NCBI GenBank assembly: GCA_030018805.1
Contig: JASEHL010000001.1
Location: forward strand, 1 to 57,521
Length of the DNA stretch: 57,521 nucleotides
Origin: Patescibacteria group bacterium
GTDB lineage: Bacteria; Patescibacteriota; Minisyncoccia; Moranbacterales; UBA11712
Reading direction: 5' to 3'
Positions 14,153-56,174 of the stretch are shown in pieces (within the stretch, counting starts at the first letter, position 1; each line of letters begins with the position of its first letter). The notes under the pieces were generated by a model. The model ran no database searches. It worked only from the letters and a program-made list of their open reading frames with translations, and was not told the origin of the DNA. The translations under genes and the position numbers were made by a program.

Positions 14153-14329
14153 GATGCGCACTCGCTGCGCGAGTGCTAAATTAAAAACTTAAAATTAAAA
14201 GTGAAAAATTATGGAGTCTCGCTGCGCTCGACAATTTACTTTATACATAAATAGTCATGCGCGAAGCGCATACCAGAATTTTTACTTTTTCATTTTTACT
14301 TTTTAACTTAGCGCGCGTAGCGCGCATTG
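14153..14329 (-). other. ORF-less intervening sequence in a 16S hairpin loop (E. coli about 1130-1140)
   Basis: The native stem cccagccc (14145-14152) pairs with gggctggg (about 14330-14337) and is extended by an insert. The insert arms aaattaaaaacttaaaattaaaagtgaaaaatt and aatttttactttttcatttttactttttaactta are complementary and have a 7-nt period. Confidence 0.6.
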
Positions 14330-15005
14330 GGCTGGGCAGTCTCGAGTGACACTTGTAACACTCGACAGGGGTTGCGCTCGTTTCCCGACTTAACGGAACA
14401 CCTCACGGCACGAGCTGACGACAACCATGCAGCACCTGTCCAGCACCCTCGAAGGCTATCATGTTTCCATGATATGCAGCTGGATTTCAAGCCCTGGTGA
14501 GGTTCCTCGCTTATTGACGAATTGAACCGCGTGCTCCACCGCTTGTGCGGGTCCCCGTCTATTCCTTTGAGTTTTAAGCTTGCGCTCGTACTTCCCAGGC
14601 GGCCTGCTTAACGCGTTAGCTACGGTCCTGAAAGGGTCGATACTTCCAAGACCTAGCAGGCAACGTTTAGGGCGTGGACTACCGGGGTATCTAATCCCGT
14701 TCGCTACCCACGCTTTCGTGTCTCAGCGTCAGACAAAGCCCAGTTCACTGCCTTCGCCTTTGGCGTTCCATATGATATCAACGCATTTCACTGCTACACC
14801 ATATGTTCCATGAACCTCTACTTGTCTCGAGTGATGACGTTTCAGATGCGGCTCCAACGTTGAGCGCTGGAATTTGACATCTGACTATCATCGCCGCCTA
14901 CACACGCTTTACGCCCAATAAATCCGGATAACGCTTGAGGTCTCTGTATTACCGCTGCTGCTGGCACAGAGTTAGCAACCTCTTATTCCTACCGTACCGT
15001 CAGAA

Positions 15006-15437
15006 GTGAGATGTGAGAAGTTAGATGTGAGATTTTATTTCCATCTTTCCCTTAACCTGTATAATTGTTTGCCGATAATATCGTATTCTTCTATTAATTT
15101 ATCGGCAATATTTTTTTCTCCAAATTCAGCATTAACTGAATCTTCTATATGACTCATAACTTCATTACATGAACCTAGAGATCGAGTTAGATACAGCTTA
15201 AATTCCGCTATAGATCTTCCGTATCCTTCTGCAATATTCGAATGAATCGAATTTGCAGCTCTGCACATTTGATCTCTTAGATGTTTTGCTTCAAAGGGAA
15301 ATGTTTTTGTATAATTTACAATCTGTGGATACAATTTTTTTGATCTTTGGTAAACATCAAGATCTTTAAAACTTTTAATCATATCCAAATTATACAACAA
15401 TTATATCTCACTTCCCACCTCTCAACTCTCACCTCTT
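15006..15437 (-). other. intervening sequence in the 16S V3 helix carrying a four-helix-bundle protein gene
   Basis: The arms gtgagat/gtgagaa/gttagat/gtgagat (15006-15033) and atctcac/ttcccac/ctctcaa/ctctcac (15405-15435) are inverted 7-nt tandem repeats. The flanks are normal 16S sequence (..ACCAGAAGAAG and CTTCTGACGGTAC..). Confidence 0.65.
15035..15400 (-). CDS. four-helix-bundle protein (23S rRNA-intervening-sequence protein / Avd-like family)
   Basis: 121 aa. FKDLDVYQRS...FPFEAKHLRDQMCRAANSIHSNIAEGYGRS...EFKLYLTRSLGSCNEV fits the family pattern. It is in the same orientation as the rRNA. Confidence 0.8.
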   Translation of the reverse strand: MLYNLDMIKSFKDLDVYQRSKKLYPQIVNYTKTFPFEAKHLRDQMCRAANSIHSNIAEGYGRSIAEFKLYLTRSLGSCNEVMSHIEDSVNAEFGEKNIADKLIEEYDIIGKQLYRLRERWK

Positions 15438-15989
15438 CTTCTGGTAGAAAAGAAGTTTACAACCCGAAGGCCTTCATCCTTCACGCGGCGTCGCTCGGTC
15501 AGGCTTTCGCCCATTGCCGAAGATTCTCGACTGCAGCCACCCGTAGGTGTTTGGGCAGTGTCTCAGTCCCAATGTTGGGGATCATGCTCTCACATCCCCT
15601 ACCCGTCATAGCCTTGGTGAGCCATTACCTCACCAACAAGCTGATAGGACACAGGCCGCTCCTCAAGCGATAAATCTTTACTCCGAAGAGAACTATCTCG
15701 CATTATTCCCCCTTTCGAGGGATTATTCGAGACTCAAGGGTACGTTCCTATGCATTACTAACCCGTTTGCCGTGCCGCCAAAGGCGGCACGCGACTTGCA
15801 TGCCTTATCCACGCCGCCAGCGTTCATCCTGAGCCAGGATCAAACTCTCAATAAGAATTATTTCGATAAAATAAATTACCAAAATAATTTTGAGAACCCG
15901 GAATTTTTTGATAGAAATTCCGGCGAACTCTATAAAAGTAACTGATTTTGAATAGATCGTTTGGCACTTCCCCGACGTTACGTCGGGGC

Positions 15990-16015
15990 CAGGACAACCA
16001 CAAAAACTTGCGATT
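15990..16015 (-). other. 5' half of the 16S precursor processing stem
   Basis: caggacaaccacaaaaacttgcgatt pairs with 12700-12725. Confidence 0.6.
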
Positions 16016-16017
16016 GT

Positions 16018-16076
16018 TTACCCTGTTAAATTGCGCCAGAGGCGCACCTCGCGAAGCGAGGATTTAACAGGGTGAA
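16018..16076. repeat. family-A palindromic element, copy 1 (intergenic, rRNA leader)
   Basis: The outer arms are ttaccctgttaaat and atttaacagggtgaa. They enclose two inner hairpins, tgcgcc-aga-ggcgca and cctcgc-gaa-gcgagg. Confidence 0.85.
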
Positions 16077-16465
16077 CCCCGACACTAATATAAGATTGGT
16101 GCGGGGTTTTCCTCATCAATTCTTTTGCTGGCAAATTGATGAGGATTCAGTTGTCAAGGTTCATCATAACTGCAAAGTGATGAGGGCAACATTGTTGCCC
16201 AAAAAGCTTTGAAGTTATAAATGCTTTGGGTTGATGGCAGGGGCGTCTAGGCCTATCCGCAATTCACCTCTTTCCGATCATTCTGGAAAGGCTCTGCCGT
16301 TTCATTGAGCCGACCTTTTAGCCGCGAGAGAAAGGTTTATCTCCCATTACTCTGCCTGCCTCCGGTCACCAACGCCACCAACCCAAATTTTATGTCTAAA
16401 GAACACAAAACACGACCAGAATAATCCGCAATATTTCTATTACAAACTATTCCAGTCGCGTCTTT

Positions 16466-54438: not shown

Positions 54439-54600
54439 GAATCATACTTTCCGGTTTTTTGTGATTTTCTCTCTTCTCTTGACAAAATATTGCAAAAATC
54501 CCAATATTCTGATAGTATTTGAAAGTCGAAGCCCACTCAATCCCGCTTAGCGGGATAAAGCGGGGTAAACTTTAAAAATTATAATTAACGTAAAACACGA

Positions 54601-54873
54601 ATGAAAAAGAAAGAACTCGTGGAGGCGATTGTGGAAAAAACCCAACTCGCCAAAAAGGACGTGTTGATGGTCATCGAGACTATGGCCGAGGTCGTGAAAG
54701 GCACCGTCGCCAAAGAAGCGGTTGAAATTCCGGGCTTGGTTAAGCTCGAAAAGAAGAACCGGGCGGCTCGCATGGGGCGAAACCCGATGACCGGAGAATC
54801 TATCAGCATTCCGGCCAAAACCGTCCTCAAAGCTCGCGTTCTCAAAAAGCTCAAGGACGCGGTTATGAAATAA
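54601..54873 (+). CDS. hup: HU family DNA-binding protein
   Basis: 90 aa with MKKKELVEAIVEKT... and RMGRNPMTGESISIPAK. Confidence 0.9.
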   Translation: MKKKELVEAIVEKTQLAKKDVLMVIETMAEVVKGTVAKEAVEIPGLVKLEKKNRAARMGRNPMTGESISIPAKTVLKARVLKKLKDAVMK

Positions 54874-54899
54874 CAGCCTTTCAACAGTCTGTATTTATC

Positions 54900-54931
54900 A
54901 AAAAATCCCGCCGTAGCGCGCGGGTTTTTTG
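54900..54931 (+). terminator. intrinsic terminator after hup
   Basis: cccgc-cgtagcgc-gcggg followed by T6. Confidence 0.7.
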
Positions 54932-54956
54932 ATAAATACTTTATGCATAATACTTT

Positions 54957-56105
54957 ATGCACTATACTTGTACCATGCTTATTCTTGCCATTGAAACATC
55001 CTGCGACGAAACGGCGGTGGCTCTTGTTGAGGAAAAAAGGGGCGGTTTTTTCGTAATTGACGAATATGTTTCTTCGCAAACAAAAACCCACGCGCCATTT
55101 GGAGGAGTTGTTCCCAATCTTGCGGCCAGGGACCACTTGAAAAATCTTCCTTTGCTCCTCAAAAAAATCATCGCGAAGAACAAAATCAAGCGGAATAATA
55201 TTGATTTGATCGCCGTGACGGAAGGTCCGGGACTCATTCCGGCGCTGCTCATCGGCACGAATGCGGCGAAGGCCATTGCCTATGCCTGGAAAAAACCGCT
55301 GGTCGGCGTGCACCATATTGCGGGACATATATATGCGAACTTCATTCACCTTGTTAAATCCCCGACGTCACGTCAGGGTGCGGCTTTGCCGCAATTTAAC
55401 AGGGTAAAATTTCCTATTCTCGCTCTCATTGTTTCTGGAGGGCACACGGAGCTCATATTCATGAAAAAGCATATGGATTTCAAAATCGTCGGTCAGACTC
55501 TCGACGACGCGGCCGGCGAAGCTTTTGATAAGGTGGCTAAGATTTTGGAGCTGGGCTATCCCGGCGGACCGATAGTTTCTCGGCTGGCAGAACTTTACCA
55601 AAGTTCGACTTTTCCCTCCCAACAACGGAGTTGTCGGGATTCCTCAAAGTCGAACTTTTCGCTGCCGCGGCCCATGATCAATTCAAATAACCTCAATTTT
55701 TCCTTCTCTGGCCTGAAGACCGCCGTACTTTATACCATTCGAGACAATCCGAAAACTCTGAAAAGCAAAAAACTGACCAGCGAGCTTTGCGCCGAATTCC
55801 AGCAGGCCGCGATTGACGTGTTGGTGTCAAAAACAATTCGCGCGGCCAAAAAATATAAGCCCAAAACCATTCTTCTCGGTGGTGGTGTCTCGGCCAACAA
55901 GGAACTGCGCCGCCAGCTCGGCGAGATCATAAAAAAACAGATACCAGATACCAGATACCAGATACCAGATACAAAATACTCCCTCGACAACGCTGCCATG
56001 ATTGCCGTAGCCGGATATCACAAGTGGAAATTTTCGAAAAACAGGAAACCGTTCTATAATAACTGGAGAACATTCGAAGCGGACGCGAATCTTAAGTTGA
56101 ATTAG
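54957..56105 (+). CDS. tsaD: tRNA N6-adenosine threonylcarbamoyltransferase with three in-frame repeat inserts
   Basis: 382 aa with ILAIETSCDETAVA, VGVHHIAGH, SGGHTELI and NAAMIA. The likely start is MLILAI at 54975. Confidence 0.9.
   Translation: MHYTCTMLILAIETSCDETAVALVEEKRGGFFVIDEYVSSQTKTHAPFGGVVPNLAARDHLKNLPLLLKKIIAKNKIKRNNIDLIAVTEGPGLIPALLIGTNAAKAIAYAWKKPLVGVHHIAGHIYANFIHLVKSPTSRQGAALPQFNRVKFPILALIVSGGHTELIFMKKHMDFKIVGQTLDDAAGEAFDKVAKILELGYPGGPIVSRLAELYQSSTFPSQQRSCRDSSKSNFSLPRPMINSNNLNFSFSGLKTAVLYTIRDNPKTLKSKKLTSELCAEFQQAAIDVLVSKTIRAAKKYKPKTILLGGGVSANKELRRQLGEIIKKQIPDTRYQIPDTKYSLDNAAMIAVAGYHKWKFSKNRKPFYNNWRTFEADANLKLN
55347..55408. repeat. family-A palindromic element inside tsaD
   Basis: caccttgttaaat-ccccgacgtcacgtcaggg-tgcggctttgccgca-atttaacagggtaaa encodes LVKSPTSRQGAALPQFNRVK. 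Confidence 0.85.
55600..55658. repeat. palindromic insert (family G) inside tsaD
   Basis: The arms are aaagttcgacttt (55600-55612) and aaagtcgaacttt (55646-55658). It encodes SSTFPSQQRSCRDSSKSN. Confidence 0.8.
55939..55980. repeat. (ataccag)n heptad tandem array inside tsaD
   Basis: cagataccagataccagataccagataccagatac encodes IPDTRYQIPDTKY. Confidence 0.9.
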
Positions 56106-56174
56106 GAATCAGGAGTTATGAATTATGAGTCCCAAAAAAAGACCACTTCGGCCCTGATTCATAATTCATAATTC
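56106..56174. repeat. intergenic heptad-armed hairpin
   Basis: gaatcaggagttatgaattatgag, a loop, then cctgattcataattcataattc. It fills the tsaD-to-next-gene spacer. Confidence 0.8.

Follow-up and report, generated by a model that had tools for sequence, protein, structure and literature searches.

Intervening sequences (IVS) in bacterial rRNA genes are the closest described relatives of the elements treated here, hairpins whose two arms are inverted tandem arrays of 7-nt units and some of which enclose a gene of the four-helix-bundle (4HB) family PF05635/TIGR02436. We analyzed these elements in contig JASEHL010000001.1 of a Patescibacteria group bacterium (assembly GCA_030018805.1), a stretch of 57,521 nt that we call the window and to which all coordinates given without another locus name refer. 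In Coxiella, Leptospira, and Salmonella, RNase III cuts the stem of the IVS without religation; the Coxiella IVS has three or four tandem GACAGAT heptamers, a number that varies by strain, and the first of them is the site of the 5′ cut (PMC4990558). PF05635 open reading frames (ORFs) have been reported both in 23S IVS and in 16S and 23S inserts of the candidate phyla radiation (CPR) (PMC11270868). The gene-bearing elements of the window, hereafter cassettes, resemble the IVS of 23S helix 45 in Coxiella and Leptospira in their position at the tip of a variable helix, in their complementary arms (stem of ∼28–32 bp), and in the protein family encoded in the loop; with the Coxiella IVS they also share a heptamer arm (there GACAGAT, in the 5′ arm). 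Unlike rRNA IVS, elements of this type are also found in the window in mRNA operon spacers and protein-coding genes, both of their arms are periodic, and the unit is specific to the clade of the encoded protein. The window-type ORF is under strong purifying selection, whereas that of Coxiella has been judged decaying and untranslated. Excision has been shown for the IVS of Coxiella, Leptospira, and Salmonella and is a prediction for the window inserts.

Heptamer repeats have been listed in bacterial genomes since about 1990, with no binding partner known for them. Among them are the cyanobacterial short tandemly repeated repetitive sequences (STRR) of Nostoc and Anabaena, and an STRR was reportedly found by Vioque in 1997 inside helix P12 of RNase P RNA. 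Heptamer arrays lie near start codons in Beggiatoa (TAACTGA), cyanobacteria, and Bacteroidota (PMC4679880), and Nostoc has (TTTTGAA)3–4 near start codons, the interacting protein being described as "yet to be identified" (preprint 10.1101/2022.06.06.494920). Like these arrays, those of the window consist of tandem 7-nt units (2–6 copies), are intergenic, often touch a start codon, are sometimes found in genes or structured RNAs, and come in several units per genome; the TTTTGAA/TTCAAAA unit is common to the Nostoc arrays and the window cassette at 32256–32729. The STRR-type reports differ in that they treat direct arrays in other host taxa and make no link to PF05635 or to inverted pairs. Closer in geometry are the paired hepta- and octanucleotide sites (classes 1–3) of Geobacter metallireducens, which have been read as "predicted global regulator binding sites" (PMC2700814). 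They place 4–5 tandem 7- or 8-nt units on opposite strands at variable spacing, lie in operon spacers (proB/proA, moaA/mosC), and occur in dozens of copies; unlike the window cassettes, they are interpreted as IHF/HU-type DNA sites, and the report draws no link to a 4HB gene (PMC2700814). In the same organism ISGme8, an insertion sequence of the IS110 family, inserts at a fixed distance from paired octamer arrays (PMC2700814).

Rickettsia palindromic elements (RPE), miniature inverted-repeat transposable elements (MITEs), and the hairpin-forming doublets of repetitive extragenic palindromic (REP) sequences known as REPINs are likewise short palindromes dispersed in spacers. RPE also occur in RNA genes and, in frame, in protein genes, at surface loops, which matches the inserts in the ligA Zn-loop and in tsaD described below. 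In contrast to the heptad hairpins, however, members of the RPE, REP, and MITE families are recognized by a conserved sequence and not by a period. REPINs have a partner in the REP-associated tyrosine transposase (RAYT), whereas the heptad hairpins have no known transposase partner, and the RAYT-like gene of the window has its own, non-heptad palindromes.

A sequence-only reading of the window that preceded this analysis knew of no family defined by heptad-periodic arms that also occupies 16S rRNA, mRNA spacers, and ORFs. This was too strong, since the pieces have been published (PMC4990558, PMC2700814, PMC11270868, and the STRR literature), but among open-access papers and bioRxiv we found none that unifies them, links PF05635 genes to inverted heptad arrays, or reports clade-specific units. 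What is new here is the unification of the IVS ORFs, the Coxiella heptamers, STRR, and the paired repeats of Geobacter.

Inverted Heptad Arrays in the Window

In a lag autocorrelation of the whole window, run on 21-nt windows with a minimum of 15 matches and cleared of low-complexity runs, lag 7 yields 23 arrays and each other lag from 4 to 15 yields 1–5, except lag 14, which is twice 7. At a stricter cut (at least 19 of 21 matches), 7 arrays remain at lag 7 and none at the other lags, save 4 at lag 14, and Tandem Repeats Finder independently recovers the same arrays. The 7-nt period thus survives a formal autocorrelation test and is the sole enriched repeat period in the window.

When each array is aligned to the reverse complement of its surroundings and scored against shuffles, eight solid inverted pairs emerge, with partner scores of 28–44 against a null of about 16 ± 2 (Table 1). 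The sequence-only reading had counted at least ten loci with one 7-nt-armed architecture. Eight of these pairs are clear; the palindromes that it placed at 18138 and 23703 have no clear period, with a lag-7 signal of 8–9 of 14 that is not above other lags, and the second 16S insert (IVS-2) is weak, the lag-7 score of its arms not exceeding that at lag 6 or lag 8. As in STRR, tandem 7-nt arrays of several unit types occur within a genome, both in the window and in its sister genomes. The data support the view that the heptad hairpins are one structural family.

The layout of a cassette is a purine-rich array of ∼4–5 × 7 nt, a gap of ∼10–20 nt, the cargo, a gap of ∼8 nt, and a complementary pyrimidine-rich array. 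The cargo in the window is usually a PF05635/TIGR02436 gene; some elements have only a loop, and one pair encloses a piece of a host gene. Operon cassettes and ORF-less hairpins fill the spacer between the stop codon of the upstream gene and the start codon of the downstream one, and the best-case stems fold at z scores of −4.9 to −7.3. A reading of the hairpins as terminators was set aside on position and sequence: the genes around them are co-directional and close, and T-runs do not follow.

Table 1. Coordinates of heptad-armed elements, their genes, and related features in the window
Feature	Position	Strand	Description
16S rRNA gene	12819–15855	-	Rfam RF00177, 1238.6 bits at 13891–15855; hosts IVS-1 and IVS-2
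IVS-1	15001–15440	-	419-nt insert at tip of 16S helix 17, model position ∼457 (Rfam alignment)
IVS-2	14153–14329	-	181-nt ORF-less insert at tip of 16S helix 40; replaces 4-nt loop at ∼1158 (Rfam alignment)
4HB#1	15035–15382	-	115 aa from ATG at 15382; mechanical ORF to 15400; in IVS-1
4HB#2	32322–32687	-	121 aa; in AATTTTC cassette
4HB#3	30929–31257	-	PF05635 gene with single frameshift in T5 run at 31196–31200; in CATGGAA cassette
CATGGAA cassette	30884–31320	-	Between pilin gene and prepilin peptidase gene
AATTTTC cassette	32256–32729	-	Pilus operon; 56-nt arms, 77% complementary
ligA Zn-loop hairpin	24855–24961	-	In-frame insert of ∼33 aa in Zn-finger loop; arms (CATAACA/CATGGAA)n and (CTCCATG)4
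ligA arm pair	24283–24536	-	(CATGGAA)3.6 at 24495–24536 and (TTCCATG/TTCCAAG)5 at 24283–24331; partner score 43
ORF-less hairpin CCAAAAA/TTTTTGG	50789–50885	-	Fills stop-to-start spacer; weak fold, z −2.1
ORF-less hairpin	52558–52648	-	GAATTAT ×4.1/ATTCATA ×4.7 (+ strand); operon spacer; 27 nt at 93% complementary; fold z −4.9
ORF-less hairpin GAATTAT/ATTCATA family	56098–56185	+	Between convergent tsaD and 56159–56938; fold z −3.1
Palindrome copy 1	18131–18196	-	Between amidohydrolase gene and murD; TACGAAT motifs; z −6.3
Palindrome copy 2	23697–23778	-	Between gatC and gatA; z −7.3
Unpaired array (ACCAAAT)5.4	28660–28714	-	Codes for pilin leader peptide, MKKRIPNTKYQIPNTKSG before FTLIE; absent from sequence-only reading
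Unpaired array (CAGATAC)5	55928–55984	+	In frame within tsaD, peptide QIPDTRYQIPDTKY; absent from sequence-only reading
Pair 1 (IVS-1)	14997–15037/15403–15438		Inverted-partner alignment
Pair 2 (ligA)	24283–24331/24495–24536		Inverted-partner alignment
Pair 3 (ligA)	24855–24897/24916–24961		Inverted-partner alignment
Pair 4 (pilus operon)	30884–30929/31283–31320		Inverted-partner alignment
Pair 5 (pilus operon)	32256–32300/32693–32729		Inverted-partner alignment
Pair 6 (spacer)	50789–50816/50836–50885		Inverted-partner alignment
Pair 7 (spacer)	52558–52602/52605–52648		Inverted-partner alignment
Pair 8 (spacer)	56098–56131/56148–56185		Inverted-partner alignment

Heptad Arms Bracket PF05635 Genes in the Window and across Phyla

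Three of the window elements had been proposed to carry a gene of the IVS/Avd family, and for two of them the family is confirmed. 4HB#1 (15035–15400) matches PF05635 at E = 3.6e-24 (85.4 bits) and TIGR02436 at E = 7.7e-23 (80.8 bits), and 4HB#2 (32322–32687) matches the same models at E = 1.9e-15 (57.4 bits) and E = 1.3e-21 (76.8 bits), the curated cut-offs being 33.8 bits for PF05635 and 24 bits for TIGR02436. The third gene, 4HB#3, is frameshifted, and its C-terminal fragment falls below the PF05635 cut-off (26.4 bits, E = 8e-6). Its intact, full-length orthologs on two metagenome contigs (L100 and L139) match profile A1 at E = 3e-17 and 8e-13. A 1-nt shift in a T5 run is the sole defect of the window copy, which is either a very recent pseudogene or the product of a sequencing or assembly error.

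The ratio of nonsynonymous to synonymous substitution (dN/dS) is 0.07 between 4HB#1 and its counterpart on sister contig L084 and 0.05 between the two intact 4HB#3 orthologs; by this measure the 4HB protein is functional and under strong purifying selection. A profile made from relatives matches 2gsc and 2rld in the PDB, both of which contain five chains, and a homopentameric toroid is reported for XCC0516, a relative of S23p (PMC4990558). Relatives of 4HB#2 at 70–92% identity occur across CPR phyla, and one search gave at least 8,000 close relatives for a single CPR clade.

The association extends well outside the window. We sampled 80 PF05635 loci from species-representative genomes of many phyla (L004–L083), among them Acidobacteriota, Bacteroidota, Planctomycetota, Desulfobacterota, Cyanobacteria, Bacillota, Verrucomicrobiota, Alphaproteobacteria, and CPR, with cultured isolates included, and 13 loci from viral contigs (L208–L220); 92 genes were assessable, and the same geometry moved into neighboring DNA served as control (n = 177). 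The flanks form an inverted repeat (z ≥ 5) in 78 of the 92 genes, and a period-7 or period-8 array is present in at least one arm in 77. Both features coincide in 71 of 92 (77%), compared with 0 of 177 controls. With all three window genes bracketed as well, the link between hairpins and 4HB genes is far from chance. The heptad-armed cassette is a family-wide architecture of PF05635 genes in many phyla and is not peculiar to this genome.

Among the 80 genome loci, the best lag is 7 in 72 flanks, 14 in 12 more, and 8 in 25, and no other period is used; the median number of units per arm is 4.4 with 7-mers and 4.5 with 8-mers. The 3′ arm begins a median of 8 nt past the stop codon, and 67 of 76 PF05635 genes are co-oriented with their upstream neighbor. 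All sampled cassettes have the purine-rich arm first (purine fraction 0.70 in the 5′ arm versus 0.34 in the 3′ arm), on both strands alike. We do not take the purine-rich 5′ arm as a link to the direction of the ORF, because an inverted repeat reads alike on both strands. No difference in regularity was found between the 3′ and 5′ arms of the sampled cassettes.

The Arm Unit Follows the Protein Clade

In the genome set, the arm units lie within a distance of 1 of each other in 34% of protein pairs that are at least 60% identical, versus 1–4% of more distant pairs (permutation p = 0.002). The match can cross phyla: a Deltaproteobacteria metagenome-assembled genome (MAG) and a Pirellulales MAG (Planctomycetota) both have CGTGAAG. 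Relatives of 4HB#1, 57–95% identical, are flanked by GTTAGAR/GTGAGAW (GTKAGAR) arms in four contexts from different CPR phyla, whether in 16S helix 17 (L084), in 16S helix 6 (Giovannonibacteria), at pilC/pilin (Wolfebacteria), or in a wzy/secA spacer (Kaiserbacteria). The same is seen for relatives of 4HB#2 (70–73% identical), which have AATTTTS arms at argS/M16 peptidase in Shapirobacteria and beside a cupredoxin-like gene in Jorgensenbacteria. This clade covers three phyla and contexts, with a C-to-G change in the unit mirrored in the opposite arm and synonymous divergence of the ORF saturated (dS > 2).

Conservation of the arms is strictest between the window and L084, where 0 of 64 arm sites and 0 of 22 sites in the spacer from arm to ATG differ (0 of 86 together), versus 15 of 116 third positions of the ORF. 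Three clades with three different units coexist in the window, and the unit is therefore not set by a shared host factor. We infer that it is determined by the element-encoded 4HB protein, the only such candidate.

Orthologous Sites Turn Over and Arms Occur without the Gene

Three syntenic sister loci (L001–L003) have 6–8 arrays at lag 7 versus 0–1 at other lags, so that the lag-7-specific enrichment is found in sister genomes as well. At the ligA Zn-loop, 119 aligned LigA homologs show three states: the site is empty (P0004), contains the same insert as the window (P0002), or contains unrelated repeat-derived inserts (P0003, P0009), the relatives with an empty loop being ∼77% identical to the window LigA. 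At the other two ligA positions, Moranbacteria-like homologs (70 displayed of the 119 aligned) carry heptad-encoded peptides with other units, namely FQISNFKFQ from TTTCAAA, LQITNYKLQ from TTACAAA, and LRVTSYVLR from TTACGTG. The junction between the pilin and prepilin peptidase genes is equally variable, with the CATGGAA cassette in the window and in L100 and L139 (same site, 82% nucleotide identity over 455 nt), the palindrome of 18131 and 23697 in L003, and a 20-nt spacer in the Wolfebacteria contig L086. Since the states of these two sites differ among relatives, orthologous sites turn over and element families reappear at non-orthologous sites. Identical inserts at all orthologous sites would have spoken against mobility; what we see instead is presence, absence, and replacement.

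The same arms occur with and without a gene. CATGGAA arms enclose an ORF at 30884–31320 and none at two places in ligA, and AATTTTC arms enclose an ORF in the window cassette and none in hairpins of L001 and L003. In the 3–5 kb PF05635 loci, distal heptad arrays (more than ∼300 nt away) share the resident unit (distance ≤1, either strand) in 38% of cases versus 4.7% expected.

A scan of metagenomes for CATGGAA in three tandem copies yielded 80 loci (L088–L167). Copy number peaks sharply at 4 units (42 loci, compared with 14 at 5 units and 7 at 3), unlike the prediction of simple slippage. Of the 80 arrays, 65 fall within an open frame of 80 aa or more, in one orientation or the other. A strict regular-expression search for partners missed degenerate arms, and local alignment was used instead; it finds 12 clearly paired arrays, 2 of which enclose a cognate intact 4HB gene. 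Arms that persist with varied cargo or none are therefore the constant part of the element. In the CPR loci that we read, 4HB is the commonest gene cargo, with three genes in the window versus one other cargo gene (L003).

Individual Sites in the Window

The contig comes from a Patescibacteria (CPR) bacterium close to Candidatus Moranbacteria; the nearest relatives of its LigA are 77–78% identical, one of them from a Moranbacteria genome. Genes from ∼4 kb to 42 kb are mostly on the minus strand.

In the interrupted 16S rRNA gene, the 5′ arm of IVS-1 (∼15404–15440) reads GTGAGAG/GTTGAGA/GGTGGGA/AGTGAGAT and the 3′ arm (∼15001–15033) reads ATCTCAC/ATCTAAC/TTCTCAC/ATCTCAC. Both are lag-7 arrays, with an inverted-partner score of 29 against a null of 15, and they form the terminal stem of the minimum free energy (MFE) fold (z −7.0). 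The A/T-rich arms of IVS-2, at 14276–14309 (5′) and 14178–14211 (3′), also lie in the terminal stem (z −6.7), and small GC hairpins lie inside the insert. Each insert takes the place of the loop in a variable helix of the rRNA, its complementary termini form a long stem in the MFE fold, and its arms prolong the host helix, as expected of IVS. A third interruption is an intron of ∼970 nt near the 3′ end of the gene, after GTCTTGTAC at ∼13920 (12819–13920, minus strand), which contains a LAGLIDADG ORF (12974–13591) and an Rfam group-II-D1D4-1 match (13496–13609). This intron pushes the 3′ end of the gene to 12819–12950, and the 3′ exon motifs CCGCCCGTCA (12938–12947) and GGATCACCTCCTT (12819–12831) are found further downstream.

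Of the two pilus-operon cassettes, the CATGGAA one has its 3′ arm, (TTCCATG)4.3, at 30893–30922, where it provides the start codon of the prepilin peptidase gene, and its 5′ arm at 31283–31320. The AATTTTC cassette has its 5′ arm at ∼32670–32729 and its 3′ arm at ∼32256–32325, the latter extending into the leader-peptide codons of the pilin gene at 31870–32295. A small GC-rich hairpin with the loop TTCGCGAA or TTCACGAA stands just 5′ of the 5′ arm of both cassettes (31345–31370 and 32755–32790, minus strand). It is followed by a common motif, ATGGGAGAAT or GGTGGAAGAAT, which also precedes the arms in L003 (∼3060–3090) and in L100. Hairpin and motif could represent a terminator or stabilizer plus the ribosome-binding region of the original junction.

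Type IV pilin-like leader peptides are themselves encoded by heptads, at 28660–28714 and 32254–32295 in the window and at 3634–3676, 6753–6794, and 7248–7295 in L003; examples are MKKRIPNTKYQIPNTKSG and MKIENCKLKISNSA, each followed by FTLIE. Turnover of the repeats therefore rewrites the cleaved leader. The CAGATAC unit of the tsaD array also encodes the LigA Zn-loop insert in P0009, P0026, P0030, and P0048 (...QIPDT...).

The ORF-less hairpins at 52558–52648 and 56098–56185 belong to one unit family, GAATTAT/ATTCATA. The palindromes at 18131–18196 and 23697–23778 are two copies of a single element, and the L003 palindrome at the pilin/peptidase junction is a third.

Directly upstream of ligA, within 26223–27045, lies an IS200-like Y1/RAYT-like gene (26273–26938; PF01797, 25.6 bits), which has the same place upstream of ligA in the sister loci L002 and L003. 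REP-like palindromes, ACCCTAACATTCAATGTTAGGGT, bracket the window gene at 26223–26270, 26945–26992, and 27022–27045; these are unrelated to any heptad unit. Other non-heptad palindrome families include CCCCCACACCAA...TTGGTGTGGGGG (also in L003 at ∼2985–3060), GCTAAGGTTGAACCTTAGC, and GC hairpins of the CTCGCGAAGCGAG type, at 21613–21714, 27135–27225, 16048–16072, and 16473–16524.

Proposed Mode of Action

Taken as a whole, we think it probable that the elements are promoter-less cassettes carried on host transcripts, with a stem that is cut by RNase III and arms that are recognized by their own pentameric protein. The cassettes are found within host transcription units and in the same orientation as these, at the tips of rRNA helices and in operon spacers between a stop and a start codon. 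Their compactness and co-orientation suggest that they probably lack a promoter of their own and would ride on the transcription units of the host. Folding predicts that the arms would form a stem of ∼30 bp in the transcript. By analogy with the IVS of Coxiella, Leptospira, and Salmonella, RNase III probably cuts this stem and so removes the 16S insert without religation; in operon transcripts, such a cut would sever the cassette mRNA or set it free. The 4HB protein, presumably a homopentamer, may bind its own repeats, with about one unit per subunit, and would then be the simplest determinant of specificity; the 4–5 units per arm would match its five subunits. ORF-less hairpins and free arrays could be decayed or non-autonomous copies, or sites on which the 4HB protein acts in trans. 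Cassettes have spread to new sites: one clade recurs with its arms across unrelated sites and phyla, and orthologous sites turn over.

A broader proposal is that PF05635 proteins are sequence-specific ring-pentamer readers of hepta- and octamer arrays, with a cognate unit for each clade and scattered arrays as trans sites; on this view the gene would move between a pair of inverted copies of the array that its product binds. Such trans sites would include the ORF-less hairpins and free arrays of CPR, cyanobacteria (STRR), Geobacter, Beggiatoa, and Bacteroidota. We offer this only tentatively and regard it as possible but doubtful. A functional analogy, and no more than that, is TRAP, an 11-mer ring that reads (G/U)AG repeats: both would be homo-oligomeric rings with one short repeat per subunit, and the repeat number of 4–5 is near the subunit number of 5. 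The fold of TRAP differs from that of PF05635, for which heptamer binding is a prediction.

A number of observations weigh against the RNase III-cut, protein-read cassette. Mismatches between arms comprise 83 of the G·U type and 73 of the A·C type, with no sign in these counts of selection on pairing in the sense RNA; given this symmetry, pairing may be kept at the DNA level rather than in sense RNA. RNase III was not located in the window, and the Coxiella S23p appeared untranslated (PMC4990558). The association of the period (7 or 8) with protein clade is weak and only suggestive (p = 0.076), and conservation of the unit could in part reflect co-inheritance plus concerted evolution. The ligA arm pair at 24283–24536 encloses 187 nt of genuine helix-hairpin-helix coding sequence, spanned by Pfam HHH_2, and these arms, complementary at the DNA level in the window, L002, and L003, have lost their complementarity in L001. 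In L003, AATTTTG/TTCAAAA arms (3091–3670) enclose a 143-aa coiled-coil ORF (3167–3598) with no Pfam match, at the site where the window has a PF05635 gene, so that the arms can carry other cargo. Finally, most metagenomic CATGGAA arrays are unpaired, and most fall within open reading frames.

Alternative Explanations

The sequence-only reading had suggested an autonomous/non-autonomous relationship, and the elements do share features with MITEs: terminal inverted repeats are common to elements with and without an ORF, and presence/absence polymorphism is found at orthologous sites. A true transposon family would have the 4HB protein as its mobility factor, the arrays as terminal inverted repeats, and the ORF-less hairpins as non-autonomous copies. 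It would explain why the palindrome of 18131 and 23697 reappears at a non-orthologous site in L003, why the ligA Zn-loop is empty, filled, or differently filled among homologs 77–78% identical to the window LigA, and why one protein clade is found with the same arms in unrelated sites. The sharing of arm units between distal and resident arrays and the turnover of sites stand in favor of part of the earlier suggestion. The mobility enzyme is what is missing. The cassette genes match PF05635/TIGR02436 only, with no transposase, integrase, or nuclease signature in Pfam or NCBIfam and no match in PADLOC (defense) or PHROGs (phage), and no target-site duplication was seen by eye at four junctions (30884–31320, 32256–32729, and the ligA inserts). 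Two sequence-identical proteins that were checked each occur in one genomic context only, which together with the family matches speaks against a role of the 4HB protein in mobility. Arms can moreover enclose host coding sequence, and most free arrays are single rather than paired. We therefore regard a transposon family of this kind as unlikely.

Distinctly unlikely, in our estimate, is that there is no dedicated system at all. The arrays would then be merely prone to slippage, pairs would persist as stems for RNase III or other processing, PF05635 would be selfish cargo in need of such a stem, and shared units would reflect co-inheritance. Arrays that are unpaired or lie in coding loops and leader peptides, the differing repeat numbers of Coxiella strains, the symmetric G·U and A·C counts, and the decay of arms in L001 all fit such a view. 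It does not account for a copy number that peaks at 4–5 instead of falling off geometrically, for units conserved despite saturated dS and arms invariant where synonymous sites differ, for three units each kept with its own protein clade in one genome, or for the use of periods 7 and 8 only. The arrays could also be bound by a host protein unrelated to 4HB, either a global regulator or an RNA chaperone (for instance IHF/HU, or cold-shock proteins at about one per 7 nt), as has been proposed for the repeats of Beggiatoa, Nostoc, and Geobacter (PMC4679880, 10.1101/2022.06.06.494920, PMC2700814), and arrays do abut or overlap start codons; a single factor leaves unexplained both the clade-specific units within one genome and the tight bracketing of one gene family, and we consider this very improbable. 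The window genes might instead encode Avd, the accessory protein of diversity-generating retroelements (DGRs), which we take to be a member of the PF05635 family. Gene context contradicts this: the neighbors of the three genes are 16S rRNA, pilin, and prepilin peptidase genes, no reverse transcriptase is adjacent, and no pair of template and variable repeats (a long direct repeat) was seen around them. We give the DGR explanation almost no weight.

Implications

PF05635/TIGR02436 is a very large family, and we know of no function for it outside the Avd proteins of DGRs. Were the broader proposal true, a single system could explain three old puzzles: what the IVS protein does, what bacterial heptamer repeats mean, and possibly which nucleic-acid-binding role was ancestral for DGR Avd. 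The PF05635 gene and the heptamer repeats may be two halves of one cassette, with clade-specific units that stay conserved past synonymous saturation. Two CRISPR surveys list the 23S rRNA IVS protein as CRISPR-associated (PMC3936711, PMC10910872). This could be a by-product of the repeat arms or of insertion into an operon, for example between cmr3 and cmr2 in Pleurocapsa. For annotation, the elements carry a warning: an in-frame heptad insert or a pilin leader peptide can derive from repeats. For the CPR, the cassette reading would account for the tolerance of these bacteria to protein-coding inserts in their 16S rRNA genes.

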